From positions 13,618-77,617 of the IMG/VR virus record IMGVR_UViG_3300014627_000002: DNA of 64,000 nt; one strand, written 5' to 3'. Below, piece after piece: positions 3,204 through 54,615 of the stretch (position 1 is its first letter; each line of letters opens with the position of its first letter). The notes beneath the pieces were generated by a model, which made no database searches, had not been told where the DNA came from, and worked only from the letters and a program-made list of their open reading frames with translations. The position numbers and the translations under genes are program-made. The DNA comes from a virus.

Positions 3204-6200
3204 ATGCCATTCAACAATACTGCCCGTGCGGGTTTGCAAGTTTTTTCAGATGCTTTATCAGCACTGAAAAACAAAGTTTCCCCATCTCATGCACCAACTG
3301 GTGTATATGAATTTCAAGATGAGAAAATTACGCCAACCAAGCGCCAGAAGGCAAACAATGCGGCCGTAAGTCTGTTACGGCAATTACAGAATGAATCGGG
3401 GTTAAAGGCGACAGCTGAACAGAAGGTCACTTTATCGCGGTACACCGGTAAAGGGGGAAATTTAGAAGTAGAAGGGGTAAAGGGGAGCCAATATGAATAC
3501 TACACACCGGTCCCTTTAGCTAATGCACTGTGGGACCTCTTAAAAGAACATGGCTTTGACGGCGGCGCCGTACTCGATCCTTGCGCGGGGACTGGTATTT
3601 TTGCAGCTGGCCGACCTGAATCAGTGGTGATGCAGTCCGTAGAGCTTAATGATGTTTCTGGCGGTATTAATGCGTTGGTAAATGACCAGGCAAATCACAA
3701 TGTCATTGTAAGCCCTTTTGAGAAAATCGCTTCTCAGACGCAAGACAATGTTTATGATGCTGTTATTACTAATGTGCCGTTCGGTTCACGTGGAGATCGG
3801 GGCGATAATGCCCGCCATGATATTTATTCAGATGATGATTTAGACTCATACTTTGTTAAACGGTCAATTGACAAATTAAAGCACGGTAAACTGGCCGTAT
3901 TTATTGCTCACCCAAAATTACTTACGGGTGCCGGTCATAAGAAGTTCCGTCAATATATTTCTCTACGTGCTGAACTGGTGGGAGCATACCGCCTGCCTAA
4001 CAAGGTATTCCAAGCTACAGGCGCAGATGTAGTAACTGATGTTCTGGTATTTCGCAAACATACTGAAGAACTGACACAGAAAATTGAAAACCTATATGAC
4101 AATGGTTCACTTCAAGTACTTCAAGATTCCCGCATTCTGGATGCCGATATAATTGACGGTCGATATTACAAGGCTGAAGGTCAAAAAAACGTACTTGGCC
4201 AAAGTACGATAGTCAAACATGCAAAATTTAAAACAGATGTAGAAGCTGTTTTAAGTGATGAAAGCCTGCCGAATATCTTAAAACTGATTCGCCGTTTTCC
4301 AGACAGCCGTATTAATTATGGGATGCTGGAATTAACAGAAATGAAGCCAGTTTTACCGATACAAGAAGGTGATATTCGTGTCATCGGCGGCACTACATTT
4401 GAATATCAGGATGGTAAATGGATTAGCACAGGCCAGACAGCCACTTATAGTAATGCTGAAAGCTTTAGTAAGGCCCTCACAGCTTTTATGTCAGGCATGA
4501 CTTATGTTGATCTGATGGCTTATCAGAGTCATTGTGTGGCATCACATTACAAGTTATCTGCATGGGCTGGCCAGTTAATTGATGTAGTACAAAGCACAGG
4601 TGTAGAAACTTATGCACACTGGCTGGTCCAGTTTGCACTGTATGAAGCTTTACAGGCCGAAGCCTATAACAGCTATGCTCAGAACTATCCTAAGCTTACA
4701 AGTGCTTTAAAGGGCATCGCGGGGCAAGTTGGTAAAAAACCATATAAACATGCTTCAGTTAAGACCCTGGTAACGTTTAACAGTAAGGCTTTCGATAAAA
4801 ATTCAGCTGATGGCCTGTCAGCCTATTGGTATGGCAGCACTATTGAAATTGCACAGGCACTAGATGCCAAAGGCGCTTATGAAAATGCAATTTATATGGG
4901 TCGTGCTAAAGACTTTATGGTATCCGTTGATGAAATCCGGCAGACCGATCCTAATTTTGACCCATTGGCTAATGAAGATTATGCAATTTCAGGGGACGGT
5001 CAGTATGTCACGTTAAATCGGGACTATTACACGGGCAATCACGGCGAATTTTTACAGCAGATTGATGCACAGATTGAAGCCGCAACAGATCCTAAAATAC
5101 GTGCAAAACTGGTCCAGCAACGTAAAAAATCATTTGAGCATGTTGATTATGTCGATGTGGCCAATATTAATTTAGGTTTACGTGCTACCAACATTGATAT
5201 ACAGGTCAAAAGTGATTTTCTAAGCCTGTATGGTGGGGATGCAGTGACAGTCGATGAAGACGGTCGCATTCGCTTAAAAGACAAGCAAGAGCCATTAGAT
5301 CGCATTATCCGCATTATGAAGCGGGACGGGGTGCAAGGTGCTCAACATCGTTGGGTTCAAACGTTCTTCTTAAACCGTATCTTGGATTCAGTTAATAACA
5401 ATGTCCGCCTAACATTGAAGGCGAATAAGGATGAAGTATCTAAGCAGGATCATGACCTGGTATTTAAGGCTTTTTTAGAATATGCAAATGAGCTAGATGC
5501 AACCTTTAGTGCTTATCTAAAAGCCAATATCGGGTTTATGGAAGACCTAGATGCAAAAGTAAATGACCCAATGCATAAAGAAATGCAGAGTGAGCTAGAT
5601 ACTTCACCAGTAGAGGTCAAAGGCTTTGCACCTAAGTTTGCAACATTTAAAGCGATGCAGACTTATCAAAATGCAGAAGTACGCCGTTTAAGTCGCCGTT
5701 TTGAAGGAATTACCGGCTTTGATGTAGGTTTGGGTAAGACACTCACTTCAATTGCAGCTGCACAAAACCTGCATAATATTGGCGTTAAAAAGCGTACCTT
5801 GTTTGTGGTTCCATCACATACGATTTCTAAATGGTATCGTGATATGCAAATGTCGTTAGATGATTACAGTGATGTATTAGTCATCGGCTTAAAGGGCAAT
5901 ACACTAAGTTCGGTCAATAGTAGCCATTACGGTGCTGACTTAAACCTATTGCTTAGTGAACCCTATCGCAAGATCCTGATTACTAGTGATGCTTTCACTA
6001 TGATTCCGCTACGTGACCGCACCATTGAAAAATATTATGAAAGTAAAAAGGCAAAAATCGATTTTTCAAAAGATAAAGACCGAGAAAAATGGAACGCATT
6101 TATTGGCAAGAAAAAAGAACCACTTCAAAAAGATGTAGGCCGCCTACCATTTTTTGAGGACCTGAATATTGATAGCATCATTTTTGATGAAGCGCAGATG

Positions 6201-9200
6201 TTTAAAAATGGCGATGCCAGTGAAGGTTTTGGAAATTTCCAGTCTATTAAGGGCCTTTCATTATTAGCAGAAGCACAGTTATCGGACCGGGCAATTTCGG
6301 CCAAAATCAAGTCTGAATATGTTCGGGGTACTAACCCGCTTAAAGATGGTGTTGTATTGCTAAGTGCTACACCTGTAACCAATAGCCCGTCAGAAATTCT
6401 AACCATGCTGTCACTGGCCATAGGTGAGAAGAAAGCTAAAAATATGCTCGGTGGGGCTGCCATTGATTCTGTAGATGACTTTTTAAGTACTTTTGCTCAT
6501 ACCGAGTCAATTAGTGGGGTGGACCTGCTGGGTGCCGAACGTGCAGATGAAACCTTTACCGGATTTAAGAATGTCGAATTGCTTAAAAACGTTTTGCATA
6601 GTGTTGGAAACATTCAGACAGCGCGGGAAAATGATTTAAAAATTCCGGCTCAAGAAGATGTTAAAACAAATGTCAGTTTAGGTAGTGAAGACCGCCAGAC
6701 GCTTGCTGATCTGAAACGTGCATACAACATTGCCCGTCAAATGGGTAAAGGTGGGCCAGTCCTGGCAGATGAAGACGATATTAAGTTTTTGCATGAAATG
6801 ATGGGGAAACTTGGCGAATCTGAAACTTTGATCGGGCATCCATTTAACCTGATTACCAAAATGCAAGATTTGATCTTGATGGGAAGTGAGTCAGTACTTT
6901 CCCGAGCGATGTATGTCAATTACCTGCCTGAAGATCAAGAAAAGGCTCAAAAGGTTATTGATGACTTTAACAAAAAGCCAGTGAAGGTAACGTCTACTCG
7001 ATCCTTTCCATTGGTTGATAAAGCAGATGTAAAAATCAAAAAACGGGGAAAAACCATAGGTGATGCAGATGAACTTGAGATTACCGTTCGTGCTTTCCTT
7101 GATGAAGAAAATAACCGCATTGGCTTGACTGCAAACGATACAAAGGCAATTGCAGGACTAATGACCCTGGCAGATAAGGCTAAATTAGCCCTTAAACCTA
7201 AGCTGTCATCTAAAATGCAGGCACTTATTGATAATGTAAAAACAGAAATGGCTACGCCTAAACATAATGGTCACGCCAAGCAAATTATTTTCTGTGACAC
7301 ATTGGCCATGCATCACATTATCAAGCAGGCTTTGATTGAATACTGCGGAGTAGAAAAGTCCCGTATTGCAATTTTAAATGCTGCAATCAAGCCAGATGGC
7401 AGTAACGGCGCTGTTAAAAGTGAAGATGTTCAGGATATTCAGGACGGCTTTGCTACTGATAAATACACCATTGTCATTGCTAATAAGAAAGCTGATACCG
7501 GTATTGATCTGCAAAAAGGCACCCAGGCTATTCACCATTTAACAACCGGCTGGACACCTGATAGCTTGCAACAGCGTAATGGCCGTGGTGTACGTCAAGG
7601 TAATGAGCAAGAGCGCGTTAATGTGTATATGTATTCAGCAAATGGCTCATTTGATGAATATAAATTGCATGTGATTAATGGTAAATCAGACTGGATTAAT
7701 CAGTTAATGAATAAGGGAGCTACCGTATCTGGCACGCTGCAGGTATCTAGTGAGCTTACAGATGATGATTATGACCTGATGATTCAGGCAGACAGTGCCG
7801 AAGCCATTGAAGGGCTTTTAAAACAGCGTCAGGAACGCGAGAATCAAGCACGTCATGACCGGGCAGTTAAACATACTGATCTGTTAATCAAAATTGCAAA
7901 AAAAGCAGCGTCACAGGCAGACCGTACAGAGTCTAGTGTTGCTCAGGAAATCATTATTAAGGATTACGAAAAGTACATCACTTTAATGCGCCGTGATGCT
8001 AAGGCAGAGGACGCGGCTGAACGTAACCAGATCCTAGAGCAAAAGCAGGCCATTGTAAGTCAGTATGATAGTTATCTGAAAAATAACAGTGTTGAAAATT
8101 GGGATAGGGGTTTAAAGCGCAAGGCAGAGGAAAAAGGCCAGGCATCACTTTGGTTGTCTTCATTACATCATTCTGGTTTTGAAGTCGCTGCAACAGAGTT
8201 CAGTAAATTAGATGAGCAAGTTTTAAATTCTGATACCTCACTTTCAAGCCGTGCAAAAGCTAGTTTTCAGTCATTAAAACGTATGGCAGACAGTACACGT
8301 GAACAGCTTTTAAAATATGCAGACAGTCCATTTACTGATGAAGAACGGGCCATGTTACTTGATGGTACCGCCGTTCTTGATGAGAACCAGCAAATCTTAA
8401 AGCATGGTGATCTTTTAAAGGCAGAAGGAAGTAACGGCGCTATATACGGTATGCGTGTTATTGCTGAATCTCAAGACTACTATACTTTCACTGAAAGCTT
8501 TGTCCGTAATAGACAACCAATTGAACCGCATGAGCGTGATGCAGCAATTCAAAGCTTTATTGCTTATGAAACACAGTTGCTAAAAAAGAATGAGGTGTTC
8601 AGTTACGGTAGTTTAAATAGCGAAACATTAAACTCAAATAAACGCTTTAGCCGGGTTTATCCAGAGATCCAGACAGCAGTTGAAGAACAGTTGAAGGCAG
8701 AGCATGATAACTGGATTCACCAGAGTAGCGTATACAACAGTCCAGGACTCCAATTGAAGTCCAACCATGCTCTACACTGGCCAGAAATTACCTTTCCTCA
8801 ATTCTTTAAAAATAACTTGCAGCTGGCGACTGTTTTTAATGCGCCATTTTCAGGAATCATTGAAAGTATTGAACTCGGTGATGCAATTGCTCGAGTCAAA
8901 ATTCCTAACACTAAAGCGGACTTGGTGCAGCGTAAATATCCGATGAATCTAACTCGCTTGGCTGAGCAAATTTTTTCAGTAGCTGAAACAGAAAAAATTG
9001 CGGTAGATTTACAACATGCTGAATCTATTATCAATAATGAATTTATGTATTACTTTGCAGAGAAAGTAGATAAAGCTTTATCTGCATACTATAAGGGAAG
9101 TTTAAAGCTGCTTTATCCGCATCATACAGTCTTGACTGATGACCAAAAGGTAGAGATTGCAGAATATATTTTAGAACATGCTTTAAATGGCTTAGTAAGT

Positions 9201-9557
9201 TCTTATACACATCTAATGGAATGGGTACAGGAAAAGTCTGCATTTAAAGGAATTCTAAAGCTATATGCATTAGATGATAATGACCCCGAAGTTATTGTAA
9301 AACAGCATGTAAAACTACACGGCGGCATGGGTAAATTTAAGAATATTAAAATTACTGGTGTAGCTTTCTTGGGTACCGGCAGTTTTGGAGCAGCTTTCAA
9401 GTCAACCTATAAAGATGATATGAAGGCGTATGCTGACTCGATCCGTAAGCGTTGTGCTTGGGACAACCGCAATACCCGTTGGGTAGTTGAACCTGAAGTC
9501 ATGGTATGGATGATGAAACAGGACTGGTTTAATATGAATGAAGTAGAATTTTACTAA
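3204..9557 (+). CDS. giant N6-adenine methyltransferase / SNF2-family helicase fusion (P1 DarB-like anti-restriction protein)
   Basis: 2117-aa ORF. The N-terminus has gamma-class MTase motifs (LDPCAGTGIF, then ITNVPFG). Helicase motifs are GFDVGLGKT (~nt 5727), IIFDEAQ (~nt 6184) and QQRNGRGVRQG (~nt 7569). The architecture matches P1 DarB. Confidence 0.85.
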   Translation: MPFNNTARAGLQVFSDALSALKNKVSPSHAPTGVYEFQDEKITPTKRQKANNAAVSLLRQLQNESGLKATAEQKVTLSRYTGKGGNLEVEGVKGSQYEYYTPVPLANALWDLLKEHGFDGGAVLDPCAGTGIFAAGRPESVVMQSVELNDVSGGINALVNDQANHNVIVSPFEKIASQTQDNVYDAVITNVPFGSRGDRGDNARHDIYSDDDLDSYFVKRSIDKLKHGKLAVFIAHPKLLTGAGHKKFRQYISLRAELVGAYRLPNKVFQATGADVVTDVLVFRKHTEELTQKIENLYDNGSLQVLQDSRILDADIIDGRYYKAEGQKNVLGQSTIVKHAKFKTDVEAVLSDESLPNILKLIRRFPDSRINYGMLELTEMKPVLPIQEGDIRVIGGTTFEYQDGKWISTGQTATYSNAESFSKALTAFMSGMTYVDLMAYQSHCVASHYKLSAWAGQLIDVVQSTGVETYAHWLVQFALYEALQAEAYNSYAQNYPKLTSALKGIAGQVGKKPYKHASVKTLVTFNSKAFDKNSADGLSAYWYGSTIEIAQALDAKGAYENAIYMGRAKDFMVSVDEIRQTDPNFDPLANEDYAISGDGQYVTLNRDYYTGNHGEFLQQIDAQIEAATDPKIRAKLVQQRKKSFEHVDYVDVANINLGLRATNIDIQVKSDFLSLYGGDAVTVDEDGRIRLKDKQEPLDRIIRIMKRDGVQGAQHRWVQTFFLNRILDSVNNNVRLTLKANKDEVSKQDHDLVFKAFLEYANELDATFSAYLKANIGFMEDLDAKVNDPMHKEMQSELDTSPVEVKGFAPKFATFKAMQTYQNAEVRRLSRRFEGITGFDVGLGKTLTSIAAAQNLHNIGVKKRTLFVVPSHTISKWYRDMQMSLDDYSDVLVIGLKGNTLSSVNSSHYGADLNLLLSEPYRKILITSDAFTMIPLRDRTIEKYYESKKAKIDFSKDKDREKWNAFIGKKKEPLQKDVGRLPFFEDLNIDSIIFDEAQMFKNGDASEGFGNFQSIKGLSLLAEAQLSDRAISAKIKSEYVRGTNPLKDGVVLLSATPVTNSPSEILTMLSLAIGEKKAKNMLGGAAIDSVDDFLSTFAHTESISGVDLLGAERADETFTGFKNVELLKNVLHSVGNIQTARENDLKIPAQEDVKTNVSLGSEDRQTLADLKRAYNIARQMGKGGPVLADEDDIKFLHEMMGKLGESETLIGHPFNLITKMQDLILMGSESVLSRAMYVNYLPEDQEKAQKVIDDFNKKPVKVTSTRSFPLVDKADVKIKKRGKTIGDADELEITVRAFLDEENNRIGLTANDTKAIAGLMTLADKAKLALKPKLSSKMQALIDNVKTEMATPKHNGHAKQIIFCDTLAMHHIIKQALIEYCGVEKSRIAILNAAIKPDGSNGAVKSEDVQDIQDGFATDKYTIVIANKKADTGIDLQKGTQAIHHLTTGWTPDSLQQRNGRGVRQGNEQERVNVYMYSANGSFDEYKLHVINGKSDWINQLMNKGATVSGTLQVSSELTDDDYDLMIQADSAEAIEGLLKQRQERENQARHDRAVKHTDLLIKIAKKAASQADRTESSVAQEIIIKDYEKYITLMRRDAKAEDAAERNQILEQKQAIVSQYDSYLKNNSVENWDRGLKRKAEEKGQASLWLSSLHHSGFEVAATEFSKLDEQVLNSDTSLSSRAKASFQSLKRMADSTREQLLKYADSPFTDEERAMLLDGTAVLDENQQILKHGDLLKAEGSNGAIYGMRVIAESQDYYTFTESFVRNRQPIEPHERDAAIQSFIAYETQLLKKNEVFSYGSLNSETLNSNKRFSRVYPEIQTAVEEQLKAEHDNWIHQSSVYNSPGLQLKSNHALHWPEITFPQFFKNNLQLATVFNAPFSGIIESIELGDAIARVKIPNTKADLVQRKYPMNLTRLAEQIFSVAETEKIAVDLQHAESIINNEFMYYFAEKVDKALSAYYKGSLKLLYPHHTVLTDDQKVEIAEYILEHALNGLVSSYTHLMEWVQEKSAFKGILKLYALDDNDPEVIVKQHVKLHGGMGKFKNIKITGVAFLGTGSFGAAFKSTYKDDMKAYADSIRKRCAWDNRNTRWVVEPEVMVWMMKQDWFNMNEVEFY

Positions 9558-13078: not shown

Positions 13079-13967
13079 TAAGTCACTTAAAGAAATCCAA
13101 AAACTTTTAGGTTCGATAGGATTATATACGGGAGCAATTGATGGTTTTTGGGGATGGGGTAGCTATAATGCGATTTTAACCCTTTCAGCCCTGTGTAAAC
13201 CTAATTCTAAGTCTTCTAAAATCAAGTCCAGTGATATTAAAAATATTTCTAAAGAGATACAAAAAATATTGGTAGAACATCATCAATATTTTGGTGTTAT
13301 TGATGGAATATTCGGAAAAAACTCAATTGCCGGTTTAAATAATCTTATTCCAGCGCCTAAAGTTACTGAGGAAAGTTTAAAGAAAATCTATAAAAACTGC
13401 TCACCAGGCTTTGCTGATTTTATTAATTCTTTTGCTGCACAGTATCAGTTGAACACTAAAGCGGATCTATGTGCTTTTCTGGCCAATAATATTCATGAGT
13501 CATCTGGCTTTACCAGCTTGCGTGAAAATATGAATTATCGCCCTGCCCGCTTATTAGAAGTTTTCCCGAAGTATTTTAAAACACTGGCAGAAGCGACAGA
13601 CGTAGTAAAACGTGGGCCTATAGCTATTGCTGACGTGGTATACGGTGGCCGCATGGGTAACGGACGTAACAATGGAGATGGATATAAGTACCGTGGTGGC
13701 GGCTGTAATCATTTAACCGGTTTAGATAACTATACCCTTTGCAGTATTGGTATAGGACTAGGTAATCAGCTTGTTGATAATCCGGATCTTATTACCCAGC
13801 CTGAATATGCGGTTAAATCAGCTTACTGGTTCTGGAATAAAAACCGCTGTAGCCGGGTAGCTAATCAAGGTAATTTTGAAGCAGCTTGCAGAATTGTAAA
13901 TGGTGGAACTAACGGTCTGTCTGAACGTCATGCCCTACATATTAAAGCCTGGTCTGTCCTGTTTTAA
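13065..13967 (+). CDS. endolysin: two peptidoglycan-binding repeats plus a GH19 (chitinase-like) catalytic domain
   Basis: The repeats are LKEIQKLLGSIGLYTGAIDGFWG and SKEIQKILVEHHQYFGVIDGIFG. GH19-like blocks are NIHESSGF and YKYRGGGCNHLTGLDNY. The start is placed at ATG 13065 behind SD TAAGGAA. Confidence 0.85.
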   Translation: MTDINKSLKEIQKLLGSIGLYTGAIDGFWGWGSYNAILTLSALCKPNSKSSKIKSSDIKNISKEIQKILVEHHQYFGVIDGIFGKNSIAGLNNLIPAPKVTEESLKKIYKNCSPGFADFINSFAAQYQLNTKADLCAFLANNIHESSGFTSLRENMNYRPARLLEVFPKYFKTLAEATDVVKRGPIAIADVVYGGRMGNGRNNGDGYKYRGGGCNHLTGLDNYTLCSIGIGLGNQLVDNPDLITQPEYAVKSAYWFWNKNRCSRVANQGNFEAACRIVNGGTNGLSERHALHIKAWSVLF

Positions 13968-21263: not shown

Positions 21264-22301
21264 ATGACAAGTTTAGCGATAGGCGACATTTTAGGTATGT
21301 CGTCAGAACCTTATGCAGCCGATAGTAGACCTAAAAATATTACAAGGGCACTGCATAACCGGGAAAACCCCTATACCTTGCTTTCAAATAAGTTATTGCG
21401 TGATACATCGATCCGTCATTCGGACCGTGGACTGATGGCGCAATTACTATCTTGGTCCGATTATCACAATGTTTGCATTCAAGCCTTGGTCAAAAAAAGT
21501 GTAGAAGGCCGTGATGCTATTCGCGGAATGATAGATCGGCTAATCACTGCAGGTTACATACGCATGCAACAAACAAAAAGTGAAGATGGCCGCTTTGACA
21601 AAGTGGTGTATCAGCTTTTTGAAGAATCTACTGGTGCGATAGTGGCTAACCTGGATTTAACTGGAATAGAAGAAAATCAGGATGATCCAGCGGCGGCACA
21701 ATTAGATTTATTTGAATGCGAGTTAGTAATGATGGAAAACCAGGATAAAACCGGTAATGTGAACCAGTCCGCAAACGGAAAAGCCGTAAACGGAAAACAC
21801 GACACTAATAATAACTATGATTCAAGAAATACTAATTTTAATAGTAATAAGCATGAATCTGGATTTGTTGAAAAGAAAAGTGAAAAGGAAACCAAAGAGA
21901 GTCTATTAAACAAATGGCCGTTAGATATTAAAAATTCACAGGTAGTGGCCCGTTTAGGTATGGCAGGTTTGAACTCTTTTGTTCCTGATCAAGAAACATT
22001 GAATCGTTACTTGATTGACTTCAATCAACAGCATGAAAAATATAAAGCTTTAAGTGATTCACAACGTCTGAATAACTTCACTTCATATTTGGTTCGTATT
22101 AAGCACACGCCAGTTGAATACACAAAACATTTAGCTCGGCTTCGTGCTCTTGGCTTTGATGTTCAAATGCCTGTCCGCAAGACTGAAAGAAAAGCATCGC
22201 AAAGAGTCCAGACTAATCAGGCCAATGTAAATCCATTTCCGGTGAGTTCTAACCAGGCGATTGTTCCCCCAGCTGCACATATCTCTTTTGAGGGATTTTA
22301 A
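21264..22301 (+). CDS. phage replication initiator/organiser-like protein (winged helix)
   Basis: The N-terminal region NPYTLLSNKLLRD..LMAQLLSW...GRDAIRGMIDRLITAGYIR resembles replication protein winged-helix domains. It lies directly upstream of a DnaC-like loader. Confidence 0.5.
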   Translation: MTSLAIGDILGMSSEPYAADSRPKNITRALHNRENPYTLLSNKLLRDTSIRHSDRGLMAQLLSWSDYHNVCIQALVKKSVEGRDAIRGMIDRLITAGYIRMQQTKSEDGRFDKVVYQLFEESTGAIVANLDLTGIEENQDDPAAAQLDLFECELVMMENQDKTGNVNQSANGKAVNGKHDTNNNYDSRNTNFNSNKHESGFVEKKSEKETKESLLNKWPLDIKNSQVVARLGMAGLNSFVPDQETLNRYLIDFNQQHEKYKALSDSQRLNNFTSYLVRIKHTPVEYTKHLARLRALGFDVQMPVRKTERKASQRVQTNQANVNPFPVSSNQAIVPPAAHISFEGF

Positions 22302-51267: not shown

Positions 51268-51810
51268 ATGAAGAATATATTCATTGATTGCCGTGTGGGT
51301 ATGTATGCAGAGAATGCAGTGCGTGTACTGGCCACTGTAGATGTTCAGAATGACACAGTAACCATTTCTCAGATTATGCCGTATTACCCGCCGGCAGACC
51401 CATTTAAGGATAAAACACCTCAACAAGTCGAAATAATCAAGATGATTAATAAGAACTCTGTAGTGGTGGTAGACAATCCTGACGCATTCAACAATTGGGA
51501 CCTAAGATTTATAGAAGAACAGCATTTGGGAGAAGCTGTTCAAGCCTATTACCTGCTGGAAAATACCAAGTCCTTAGTCCTGGATAAAGCCCTGACAAAT
51601 TTTAATCCTAGAAACATTTTAGAAACTCGAAAAATGGACATGAAGGGTAATGTTTATGAGCTTAACAGTGATGAAATCAATAACACCTATATGGTGGTGC
51701 TGATTGTATGCTGGGCTGCCGTTAAAGCACGTAATACGCACTCTATTACGGTGAATGAGTCACCTACTCAGGAAGATACAGACGAGTTTTTTGTACCTTT
51801 TTCAGTGTAG
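51268..51810 (+). CDS. hypothetical protein; small-terminase candidate by position only
   Basis: 180-aa ORF directly upstream of terL. Confidence 0.5.
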   Translation: MKNIFIDCRVGMYAENAVRVLATVDVQNDTVTISQIMPYYPPADPFKDKTPQQVEIIKMINKNSVVVVDNPDAFNNWDLRFIEEQHLGEAVQAYYLLENTKSLVLDKALTNFNPRNILETRKMDMKGNVYELNSDEINNTYMVVLIVCWAAVKARNTHSITVNESPTQEDTDEFFVPFSV

Positions 51811-51821
51811 TGGGGGCTTAA

Positions 51822-53804
51822 ATGGCTTTAAAGAGTTTAGAAAGCCTGCCCGAATGGAAAAGGGCTAGTCATCGGTATCGCTATGATATTAGCCGTTTTG
51901 CGATTGAAGGCTGCGGCATGGACTATACCGTTCAGCAAGAGCAGCTGTTTAATTCAGTAGCGCAAGACGGGAGCCGGACCAGTGTTTCATCTGGTCACGG
52001 CTGCTTTGCCAAAGGCACCCCCGTTATGTTGGATACAGGGGAAATCATACCTGTTGAAGATGTAACGATTAATCATTTCTTAAAAGGTGATGATGGCCAG
52101 AGCCGCCGTGAGGTGCTGTACCTGGAGCGCGGCCGTGAAGAAATGTTCAAGTTTACTTATGCCGATGGAACCGGGCATACGTTTAACAAATCACATATTC
52201 TGGTTTTACGCCATCTGGATACTCTTGAGGACCGTGAAATAACGGTAGGCTCATGGCTGAATTTAAAGCCCGTAGAGCGCTATAGATATGCTGTTTTGCG
52301 CCGTTGTTTGGGTGGTGTGTACCTTATTCCGATTCAGAGCGCTGAATCACTTGGGATAGGGGACTATTACGGCTTTCTGGTTGATGGAAATTACAAGTTC
52401 TTAGCTGGTGACGGCACTATATTCCACAATACCGGTAAAACTCGTTCAGCGGGCATTGTGGCGCTATGGCACCTATGTTTTTTCCCGCATTCAGTCATGA
52501 TGTTTTCAGCGCCACAGATCGAGCAGCTGAGAAAACTTGTATGGAAAGAAATTGAAATCTGTCTGAGCTTGATGCGTAACGGTCGGCTGGCTTGGCTGGC
52601 TGATTATGTGCAAGTACTGGCAGAAAGCGTCTATATCAAGGGTCATCAAAAGACCTGGCATGTTTATGCTAAAACCGCACCCAAAGGGAACCCACAAGCA
52701 CTGGCAGGGAACCACGGCGATTATTTAACAATATGGGTTGATGAAGCTGCCGCCGTAGACAATGGGGTATTTGATGTATTAACCGGTGCATTAACCCATC
52801 CAGATAACCGGATGGTTTTGACGTCACAGCCTGCAAAACCGGCAGGATTCTTTTTTGACACCCATCACAAGCTATCTAAGGCAAACGGCGGTGTATGGAA
52901 TGCCCTAACGTTTAGCTCAGAAAAGACCAGGCTGGTTGCATGGTCCAAGATCATAGAAGCCAGATTGCAATATGGCTCACGTGATGACCCGCAATACATG
53001 ATTCGTATTCTTGGAGAGTTTCCGGATCTTGCAGGCGAGTTTCTGGTTACACAGCGCATGGCTGAGAAGGCTTTTCAGGGTACGGCCATTCCTAAAAAGT
53101 ATAAAGGTTATGGTTATTTTATTCTGGTGGACGTCGGTGGGGGCGTAGGTCGTGATGATTCAACCATTACCATTGCTAAAGTATGGGGTTCGGCACAATG
53201 GGGTACACAGGCCCGCCGTGCTGATGTAATCCGTATTCCGCTATGTAAAAATAATGATGATATTCATGAACTCACAGCAAAAATCAATGAATGCTTGATT
53301 GAATACCCGAATGCTACGTTATTGGTTGATGCGAACGGCGCCGGATCTGGCTTGGCACAGAACCTCACCAGCTTGGGCATTTATTATAAAAAGATTCATT
53401 GGGGTGGCCAGTGCTTTAGTAATAAAAGCCGGAAGGAATATGTCAATAAACGTGCACAAGCATATGTATGTTTGAGCCGTGCTATTCAGCAGGACCGGTT
53501 CAAGGTGCGTACAGCCTTCTTGAAGTCAAAGGTAACAGAGCAGCTTACACGTATACCGTACACATTTGATGAGCAAGCCCGGTTCAAAATTCTGTCTAAA
53601 GAAGAAATGCGCCGCAAAGGAATTACCTCACCAGACGTTGTAGATACTTTTGCGTTTATTTTCTTGGAGGGCATGAACTATACGCCGTATGAAGAAGTCG
53701 GGACCGTTAATCCGGATACTTATGACACAGAAGGCCAAAAGTCACAGACAGAACCAGCAACGGCGGTTGATAGTGTCAATCAAATGGCCGCATTAATGAG
53801 TTAG
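51822..53804 (+). CDS. terL: terminase large subunit, interrupted by a mini-intein in the Walker A loop
   Basis: Removing residues 61-203 joins ..SVSSGHG to TGKTRSAG, giving a GKT P-loop. A Walker B-like YLTIWVDEAA is present. The C-terminal RNase H-like nuclease has LVDVGGG, LLVDANGAG and PDVVDTF. Confidence 0.85.
   Translation: MALKSLESLPEWKRASHRYRYDISRFAIEGCGMDYTVQQEQLFNSVAQDGSRTSVSSGHGCFAKGTPVMLDTGEIIPVEDVTINHFLKGDDGQSRREVLYLERGREEMFKFTYADGTGHTFNKSHILVLRHLDTLEDREITVGSWLNLKPVERYRYAVLRRCLGGVYLIPIQSAESLGIGDYYGFLVDGNYKFLAGDGTIFHNTGKTRSAGIVALWHLCFFPHSVMMFSAPQIEQLRKLVWKEIEICLSLMRNGRLAWLADYVQVLAESVYIKGHQKTWHVYAKTAPKGNPQALAGNHGDYLTIWVDEAAAVDNGVFDVLTGALTHPDNRMVLTSQPAKPAGFFFDTHHKLSKANGGVWNALTFSSEKTRLVAWSKIIEARLQYGSRDDPQYMIRILGEFPDLAGEFLVTQRMAEKAFQGTAIPKKYKGYGYFILVDVGGGVGRDDSTITIAKVWGSAQWGTQARRADVIRIPLCKNNDDIHELTAKINECLIEYPNATLLVDANGAGSGLAQNLTSLGIYYKKIHWGGQCFSNKSRKEYVNKRAQAYVCLSRAIQQDRFKVRTAFLKSKVTEQLTRIPYTFDEQARFKILSKEEMRRKGITSPDVVDTFAFIFLEGMNYTPYEEVGTVNPDTYDTEGQKSQTEPATAVDSVNQMAALMS
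52002..52430 (+). mobile_element. class-1 mini-intein (143 aa, no homing endonuclease domain)
   Basis: It starts CFAKGTPVMLDTGEIIPVEDV (Cys1). The internal His block is ..NKSHILVL. It ends GDYYGFLVDGNYKFLAGDGTIFHN and is followed by Thr+1. The insertion is exactly inside the ATPase P-loop. Confidence 0.85.
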
Positions 53805-53871: not shown

Positions 53872-54615
53872 ATGCTGAAATCATTAAAAAATTTCGCTTT
53901 TTCATCGCTTAGAGTCCAAGGCAACGTTATTTTAAATAAGCTAAGTAAAAAACTGGCAGGGGAGTGCTTAGTTAGTCCAAAACACGCTCAAAGCATCTTT
54001 AATGGTTCAGCTATCCAGCCAGAAAATAAAAATAGCGGTTATTTGATTCTTGTTCATGTAGGGAGTGACAGCCTTCACCAACACTCAGTCATTACAGTTG
54101 CTCAGGTGTGGGGTGAAACTTCATGGCCAAATCAAACTCGCCGTGCTGATGTAATCCGCATTTCATCATCTAAAAATAATGATATTCATGAGCTCATAGC
54201 AACGATTAATGAATGCCTGGCTGATTACCCGAATGCTACGGTATTAATCAATGCTTATGGCGCCGGATCTGGCTTGGCGCAGAATCTCACCAGCTTGGGA
54301 ATTTACTATAAAGAAATTCATTGGGGCGGGCCTTGTTTTGTACGCCTGAATAAAAATGAATATGTAAATCGTCGTAGCCAAGCTTATCTAGGCTTGGATG
54401 GTGCAATAAGACAGGGCAGATTCAAAATTAAAGCCAATATCGATCAGCAAAGTGTCATTAAAGAGTTATGCCAGATTCACTATAAATTCGATAAAGAAAA
54501 TCGCTGGAATGTACTGTCAATTGCAGATCATAAAGAAAAAGGAATCTGTATAACCGGGCTTATTGAAACATTCGCATATATCTATTTGGAAGGTATTTCA
54601 TATTTAACTGTTTAG
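53872..54615 (+). CDS. stand-alone paralogue of the terminase nuclease domain with substituted acidic residues
   Basis: Residues ~33-245 align with TerL residues ~405-640, with shared blocks RRADVIRI, NECL.DYPNAT, GAGSGLAQNLTSLGIYYK.IHWGG and ETFAYIYLEG. The two genes share 20-nt identical DNA runs. Confidence 0.75.
   Translation: MLKSLKNFAFSSLRVQGNVILNKLSKKLAGECLVSPKHAQSIFNGSAIQPENKNSGYLILVHVGSDSLHQHSVITVAQVWGETSWPNQTRRADVIRISSSKNNDIHELIATINECLADYPNATVLINAYGAGSGLAQNLTSLGIYYKEIHWGGPCFVRLNKNEYVNRRSQAYLGLDGAIRQGRFKIKANIDQQSVIKELCQIHYKFDKENRWNVLSIADHKEKGICITGLIETFAYIYLEGISYLTV

Follow-up and report, generated by a model that had tools for sequence, protein, structure and literature searches.

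We analysed a 64,000-nucleotide stretch of DNA from an Acinetobacter-type phage (IMG/VR record IMGVR_UViG_3300014627_000002, positions 13,618 to 77,617; hereafter the window) in which the large terminase gene, terL, is interrupted by an in-frame insert. The insert, at positions 52002-52430 of the window on the plus strand, is a class-1 mini-intein without an endonuclease, and it splits the phosphate-binding loop (P-loop, or Walker A motif) of the terminase. The observations are very probably best explained by a terL gene that carries a 429-bp splicing mini-intein between Gly60 and Thr204 and passes it on by vertical inheritance. The original prediction, made from the sequence alone, had placed the element at these positions, and on re-reading the DNA its coordinates and sequence were exact to the base.

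The terL open reading frame (ORF; 51822-53804, plus strand) encodes 660 amino acids, a PacB-type large terminase like that of phage P1 together with the intein. The N-extein (51822-52001, residues 1-60) ends in the first half of the Walker A motif, S57-G-H-G60 (51990-52001), and these four residues were invariant in all homologues. The intein (52002-52430) corresponds to TerL residues 61-203, or 143 amino acids and 16.3 kDa, and is a Hint domain of the PI-SceI/Prp8 type. The C-extein (52431-53804) contains the remaining ATPase domain, starting with T-G-K-T (52431-52442), the RNase H-like nuclease domain and the stop codon. In-silico removal of the 143 amino acids made SRTSVSSGHG and TGKTRSAG contiguous. 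This bears out the earlier claim that the insertion lies within Walker A and that its deletion restores a GKT P-loop. There was no ORF of 60 amino acids or more on the opposite strand over the intein.

Homologous terminases exist with and without the insert. We dissected the best 120 of 298 database homologues with regular expressions and by alignment. The insertion point was the same peptide bond throughout this set, and the site was found in three states. Seven homologues (509-534 amino acids) had no insert: the 143 residues were missing, the P-loop was intact and SGHGTGKT was continuous. A mini insert of 138-158 amino acids was present in 100, and the other 13 had a full insert of 343-348 amino acids. 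The full inserts kept both LAGLIDADG motifs (LGDG and DTDG) and matched Pfam Hom_end and LAGLIDADG_3 (PF05204, PF14528). All inserts began with CF and ended with Asn, followed by Thr; the residue before the Asn was His, or in a few cases Ser or Glu. An ordinary terminase domain with no P-loop restoration, which the original prediction had named as the finding that would overturn it, is not what these homologues show, since some of them lack the insert altogether.

The same three states were seen in a survey of GTDB with one genome per species. All 32 loci of this PacB-like family were in Moraxellaceae, and the junction was readable in 31. A mini-intein was present in 13 of the 31 (Acinetobacter spp., Alkanindiges and one metagenome-assembled genome) and a full-length intein in two (A. 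boissieri and Faucicola mancuniensis). The remaining 16 were empty (Psychrobacter, Moraxella, Agitococcus and three Acinetobacter), reading SGHG|[TS]GK[TS]. Intein-bearing alleles were thus mostly from Acinetobacter and Alkanindiges, and the alleles of Psychrobacter, Moraxella and Agitococcus were all empty. The three states shared a gene order: two ORFs of ~280 amino acids, one of ~180 amino acids, terL, a tail fibre gene, an ORF of ~92 amino acids and an ORF of ~353 amino acids.

The insert starts with CFAKGTPVML, contains FNKSHILVL and has GDYYGFLVDGNYKFLAGDGTIFHN at its end. The class-1 blocks read from it in the original prediction, namely Cys1, the block-B His, the terminal His-Asn and Thr+1, could all be located. 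Cys1 (TGC, 52002-52004), the N-terminal splicing nucleophile in block A, was invariant in 97 of 97 distinct mini-inteins. So were N62, S64 and H65 of block B (N62-K-S64-H65, 52185-52196), an NxxH variant of TxxH. According to the Prp8 intein paper, the yeast VMA1 intein likewise has Asn where block B usually has Thr (N76 equivalent). The core of block F, G120-D-Y-Y-G-F125 (52359-52376), aligned to DYYGI of PI-SceI; Y122 and G124 were invariant, and G120, Y123 and F125 were conserved at 93% or more. In block G (His142-Asn143, CAC AAT, 52425-52430), the terminal Asn, which would cyclise to release the intein, was invariant and the His was conserved at 96%. F2, T6, L67, G118 and F133 were the other invariant positions in the 97 sequences. 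Blocks A, B, F and G have their catalytic and structural residues at these conserved positions. Thr+1 (ACC, 52431-52433), which serves as the C-extein nucleophile and directly precedes GKT in Walker A, was Thr in 120 of 120 homologues with or without an intein, and Ser in one distant intein-less relative. A class-3 intein, which has no nucleophile at position 1 and relies on a Trp-Cys-Thr triad with a nucleophilic Cys in block F, was ruled out, as Cys1 was present and invariant and block F (GDYYGF) had no Cys.

Profile searches and structure prediction agreed with these assignments, well beyond what chance would give. A search with intein profiles had been proposed earlier as a check. In this search, PF05203 (Hom_end_hint) matched the insert with 46.8 bits (E=4.6e-12), above its curated cut-off of 32.1; the TIGRFAM intein models were below theirs. 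A scan with NCBIfam gave no usable match. When the single sequence was searched against the PDB with phmmer, PI-SceI (the yeast VMA1 intein) was found at 1e-6, with the N-terminal block CFAKGT and the C-terminal block from DYYG to HN both aligned. A profile of 25 family members gave 1e-17 for PI-SceI and 3e-17 for the Cryptococcus Prp8 inteins; the next intein was gp41-1 (0.02). An AlphaFold2 model of the intein, built on the alignment of these 25 members, had a predicted local distance difference test score (pLDDT) of 96.8 and a predicted template-modelling score of 0.89. In Foldseek, the model matched the Prp8 inteins 6MWY and 6MX6 with template-modelling (TM) scores of 0.91-0.93 and root-mean-square deviations of 1.6-1.9 A, and domain I of PI-SceI with a TMq of 0.90. 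All of the top 50 matches were inteins or other Hint-fold domains (Hedgehog, and bacterial intein-like or BIL), as expected of the horseshoe Hint fold.

The Hedgehog and BIL proteins lower in this list raise the alternative that the insert is a cleavage-only Hint module of the BIL or Hedgehog type, or a permanent extra domain of the terminase. We consider this extremely unlikely, however. The best matches in both structure and sequence were bona fide splicing inteins, and the insert has the terminal His-Asn and the conserved +1 nucleophile. Moreover, homologues either have it or lack it at precisely the same peptide bond of a catalytic loop, and some alleles have a LAGLIDADG endonuclease. If the insert only cleaved, the P-loop would stay split and could not function.

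We also asked how widely this Hint type is distributed. A profile search over 1.84 billion cluster representatives returned 7,836 members at E <=1e-3, and the top 46 all matched PF05203. Their host proteins included RNA polymerase Rpb1, AAA ATPases, superfamily 2 (SF2) helicases, Pif1, DnaB, Toprim and terminase. A special link to the fungal VMA1 and Prp8 inteins was therefore rejected: the Hint subfamily is large and spread over many hosts, and it is specific neither to TerL nor to fungi. With ~7,800 cluster representatives, the PI-SceI/Prp8 subfamily extends beyond fungal nuclear genes into metagenomes.

The insert had been judged too short to hold a homing endonuclease, and the searches agree with this. 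No match to PF14528, PF05204 or HNH was found in the 143 amino acids with Pfam, so that LAGLIDADG, Hom_end and HNH domains were all undetected there. Aligned with the full-length alleles, the window intein lacks ~200 amino acids. A free-standing endonuclease adjoining terL was searched for with Pfam and PHROGs, and none was found.

The host protein could be identified by several lines of evidence. In tblastn, its identity was 54% with the protein annotated as large terminase in Acinetobacter phage vB_AbaM_ABMM1 (hereafter ABMM1) and ~34% (2e-58) with the PacB proteins of P1 and P7; the PacB match begins at residue 202, immediately past the insert. In PHROGs, it matched phrog_2 (terminase large subunit) at 2.3e-34. 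We modelled the in-silico spliced protein of 517 amino acids with AlphaFold2 (pLDDT 86.7). The model has a strand at residues 52-57 (RTSVSS), a loop at 58-62 (GHGTG) and a helix at 63-77 (KTRSAG and following residues), and the junction G60|T61 therefore falls centrally within the strand-loop-helix unit of a P-loop nucleoside triphosphatase. A Foldseek comparison was needed because Pfam, NCBIfam and phmmer against the PDB, the last of which was uninformative for the spliced protein, gave no adequate match. The spliced model matched Sf6 gp2 (3e-21), T4 gp17 (1e-16) and also D6E TerL, with TM scores, normalised to the target, of 0.53-0.72 against isolated ATPase or nuclease domains. A Walker B-type motif, L-T-I-W-V-D-E-A, is at 52725-52748 (precursor residues 302-309) and forms a strand at 159-164 in the spliced model; W305, D307, E308 and A309 are invariant. 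Both S57-G-H-G-T-G-K63 and the W-x-D-E-A of Walker B (WVDEA in the window) were invariant across the terminase family. For Terminase_6N, the score rose from 13.8 bits on the precursor to 17.2 on the spliced sequence, where the alignment begins at residue 58 and spans the rejoined P-loop.

Evolutionary rates were compared with a relative in A. indicus (L002), whose intein protein is 78% identical to that of the window. Synonymous divergence (dS) between the two was saturated, at ~1.9-2.9, and the ratio of nonsynonymous to synonymous divergence (dN/dS) was 0.09 for the intein and 0.04 for the exteins. Between two closer relatives with a dS of ~0.1, dN was 0 in intein and extein alike. By these ratios, the intein is under purifying selection.

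ABMM1 gives a further argument. It is an isolated, plaque-forming temperate myovirus with predicted headful packaging (Mardiana et al. 2023, PMC10345192), and its TerL has a 149-amino-acid intein at the same peptide bond. As ABMM1 forms plaques and a broken P-loop cannot support packaging, splicing must occur in that relative or family. We infer that the intein of the window splices as well. That DNA packaging would depend on this splicing is a sound inference.

If so, translation would yield a 74-kDa precursor in which the ATP-binding loop is split by a 16-kDa Hint domain. An N-S acyl shift at Cys1 would be followed by transesterification onto the hydroxyl of Thr+1, by cyclisation of Asn143 with the aid of His142, and by an O-N acyl shift. 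The products would be a 58-kDa TerL with the native P-loop SGHGTGKT and the free intein. Only spliced TerL would hydrolyse ATP and package DNA, the precursor being inactive. Without a homing endonuclease, the intein would no longer invade empty alleles and would be inherited vertically with terL. It may persist because an essential motif would be ruined by any loss that was not precise.

Several points weigh against this explanation. The TIGRFAM models of the intein N- and C-termini stayed below threshold (TIGR01445, intein_Nterm, 12.8 bits against 24.5). The window has the block-F Asp (D121), but this residue is conserved in only 72% of the family. The Pfam terminase models were also below their cut-offs, even with the spliced protein (Terminase_6N, 17.2 against 22; Terminase_3, 15.3 against 23.2). 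These models do not reach so divergent a family, and TerL was identified instead by its homology to PacB, its PHROGs match and its fold. The case for splicing, for its rate and for an inactive precursor is built on sequences and models. The support from viability comes from the relative ABMM1 rather than from the window phage itself.

Because the evidence for splicing is indirect, one might argue that the insert no longer splices and is a degenerate Hint remnant in a prophage undergoing decay, with terL effectively a pseudogene. In favour of this, the phage has no homing endonuclease, and an ORF resembling a degenerate TerL fragment adjoins terL. The dN/dS values given above are those of constrained sequences, however. 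The terL ORF is intact, the catalytic residues are all present and are invariant in the family, and the entire window is densely coding phage DNA. Near-identical copies were found on contigs of 76-77.6 kb from three samples, and the viable phage ABMM1 has the same arrangement. A decayed remnant is thus highly improbable.

A refinement of the intein call, rather than an alternative to it, is that the intein serves as a conditional switch, in which a cellular cue, for example metals, temperature or redox state, acts through Cys1 to time or gate packaging. The site is in an essential catalytic loop, so unspliced TerL should be inert. Cysteine-based conditional splicing has been documented for other inteins, including a P-loop intein of DnaB, and Cu and Zn inhibit the Prp8 intein, the closest structure. 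The long persistence of the window intein under purifying selection would also fit, but the same selection is predicted just as well for an element that is purely selfish and occupies an essential site. No sensor is evident in the sequence. A disulfide between Cys1 and a +1 Cys is impossible with Thr at +1; the only other Cys, C102, is not conserved, and the Cys68 that is frequent in the family is Val in the window. Furthermore, syntenic phages have natural intein-less alleles, so the intein is dispensable. We regard such a switch as unlikely. By analogy with the Prp8 intein, the window intein might be retained as a post-translational packaging gate, in which splicing answers metal or redox stress at Cys1 and the terminase is active only in permissive conditions; this is distinctly improbable. 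The "conditional control point" of packaging named in the original prediction is speculation.

The history of the element was examined with a neighbour-joining tree of Hint cores. The window intein fell in a deep clade (P0002-P0026) of mini-inteins only, 143-151 amino acids long and 58-78% identical to that of the window. The full-length inteins formed a single clade nested elsewhere. Intein and extein distances were strongly correlated (Mantel r=0.81, with none of 999 permutations as high), and the mean distance was 0.49 for the intein and 0.37 for the extein, so that the intein has diverged somewhat faster. The fraction of G and C over all positions and at third codon positions (GC and GC3) was 0.459 and 0.455 in the intein and 0.461 and 0.437 in the C-extein. 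A recent acquisition, as judged by composition, was rejected because the two matched. The description of the element as old and endonuclease-free, given from its size, is in line with the mini-only clade, the saturated synonymous sites, the matching composition and the co-divergence of intein and extein. Long vertical inheritance of the window intein after loss of mobility is supported by these sequence comparisons.

Elsewhere in the family, closely related alleles differed in state. For example, exteins 96-99% identical to each other carried a full or a mini intein (P0043 versus P0039 and P0040; P0046 versus P0041), and one pair with 91% identity had a mini-intein or none (P0099 versus P0034). 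In the full/mini pairs, the first 69 intein residues were identical and blocks F and G showed few or no differences, but the central segments had unrelated sequences. Simple deletion of the endonuclease is too simple an origin for the mini forms of these close pairs, in which the central segment was replaced and not merely shortened. Differing central segments between identical ends therefore point to recombination between intein alleles, or module replacement. Judging from such pairs, the homing cycle is still turning elsewhere in the terminase family.

It is well established that phage terminases can carry inteins in their ATPase motifs, the P-loop among them (Kelley et al. 2016, PMC5050341; Novikova et al. 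2016, PMC4760082), in agreement with the earlier statement that these sites are recurrent intein homes. The classic P-loop site is GK|T(S), as in TerL1-a of mycobacteriophages and in many cellular ATPases (PMC5050341; PMC4760082). The mycobacteriophage inteins TerL1-a and TerL1-b (PMC5050341) resemble the window intein in being Walker A inteins of phage TerL with a mixture of endonuclease and mini forms, and several of them have been shown to splice there. They differ in several respects. Their host proteins are Terminase_1 in phages of Actinobacteria, whereas that of the window is P1 PacB-like and from Moraxellaceae. They are inserted at GK|T, whereas the window intein is at G|TGKT, three residues upstream, where the Thr before GKT is the +1 residue. 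The Hint subfamily of the window intein is of the PI-SceI type.

Among solved structures, the best sequence match was the Saccharomyces cerevisiae VMA1 intein, PI-SceI (1GPP, 1VDE, 1DFA), which shares PF05203, the NxxH of block B and the DYYG of block F with the window intein. The full-length alleles of the window's phage family also have Hom_end and LAGLIDADG domains, as PI-SceI does. Unlike the window intein, PI-SceI has 454 amino acids with an endonuclease and a DNA-recognition region, is in a eukaryotic V-ATPase subunit and uses Cys at +1. To our knowledge, its insertion site is not a P-loop. The Cryptococcus Prp8 mini-inteins (6MWY, 6MX6) were the closest structures, with 27-28% identity. 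They are likewise class-1, endonuclease-free and similar in size, but they are eukaryotic and nuclear, are found in a spliceosomal protein and have unrelated exteins.

Another close system is the orthologous terminase of ABMM1 (OQ471969; PMC10345192), with its mini-intein at the identical site and the same gene order. Its intein is only ~42% identical to that of the window (P0058 cluster), and ABMM1 lacks the TerL C-terminal paralogue described below. The ABMM1 genome paper (PMC10345192) nowhere mentions an intein. A TerL intein different from that of the window has been reported in the Acinetobacter myovirus TaPaz.

Directly downstream of terL, an ORF of 247 amino acids (53872-54615, plus strand) is 54% identical to TerL residues 403-620, in the nuclease domain. 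The acidic residues that are invariant in the family are replaced in it: VDVGGGVGRDDS has become VHVGSDSLHQHS, D503 has become N and SPDVVD has become ITGLIE. Its GC is lower (0.384). Analogous intact ORFs of 235-282 amino acids were found by tblastn directly after terL in 5 of the 32 GTDB loci (L010, 3510-4355; L014, 3550-4326; L016, 3592-4371; L018, 2239-2943; L020, 3553-4386, in locus coordinates). They are 38-49% identical to the C-terminal domain of the window TerL, with the first of the acidic motifs either deleted or mutated. The paralogue is absent from ABMM1 and from several close relatives. From these sequences, the downstream ORFs look like a recurrent, maintained, nuclease-dead paralogue of the TerL C-terminus. 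They are probably functional because they are open, diverged and recurrent. Possible roles are a terminase regulator, a decoy for terminase-sensing defence, or exclusion. This nuclease-dead copy is a more unusual observation than the intein itself.

On the other side of terL, an ORF of 180 amino acids (51268-51810, plus strand; phrog_4179) is immediately upstream of the gene in every relative. By its position it is a candidate small terminase, with no family match. The window is phage DNA throughout, on one strand, and has methyltransferase, tail fibre, tail and sheath genes. A plus-strand ORF at 3204-9557 encodes a DarB-like methyltransferase-helicase of 2,117 amino acids, of antirestriction type, and another at 21264-22301 is replication-initiator-like. 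These two ORFs, the PacB-type terminase and the genome-sized contigs of ~76-78 kb hint at a distant P1-like lifestyle, possibly that of a phage-plasmid. The nearest named relative was from A. indicus, on a 78-kb contig. A megablast search of 20-24 kb around terL against phage and plasmid collections gave no match. There is thus no close sequenced relative in those collections, and the identification therefore rests on protein-level matches.

The window intein is an ordinary example of a well-known selfish element and leaves the understanding of inteins unchanged. It does matter for annotation. RefSeq/PGAP names homologues P0002, P0044, P0051, P0059 and P0066 "Hint domain-containing homing endonuclease", a name that hides their identity as large terminases and is wrong for the endonuclease-free forms. 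Residues 61-203 should be excised first when TerL is used for phylogeny or for the prediction of packaging strategy in Acinetobacter phages. With 143 amino acids, a Thr+1 junction and a cultivable relative, the element is an easy candidate for testing the regulation of packaging by a P-loop intein. With empty, full and mini alleles and recombinant inteins at one site, this Moraxellaceae phage family is a compact natural system for the homing cycle.

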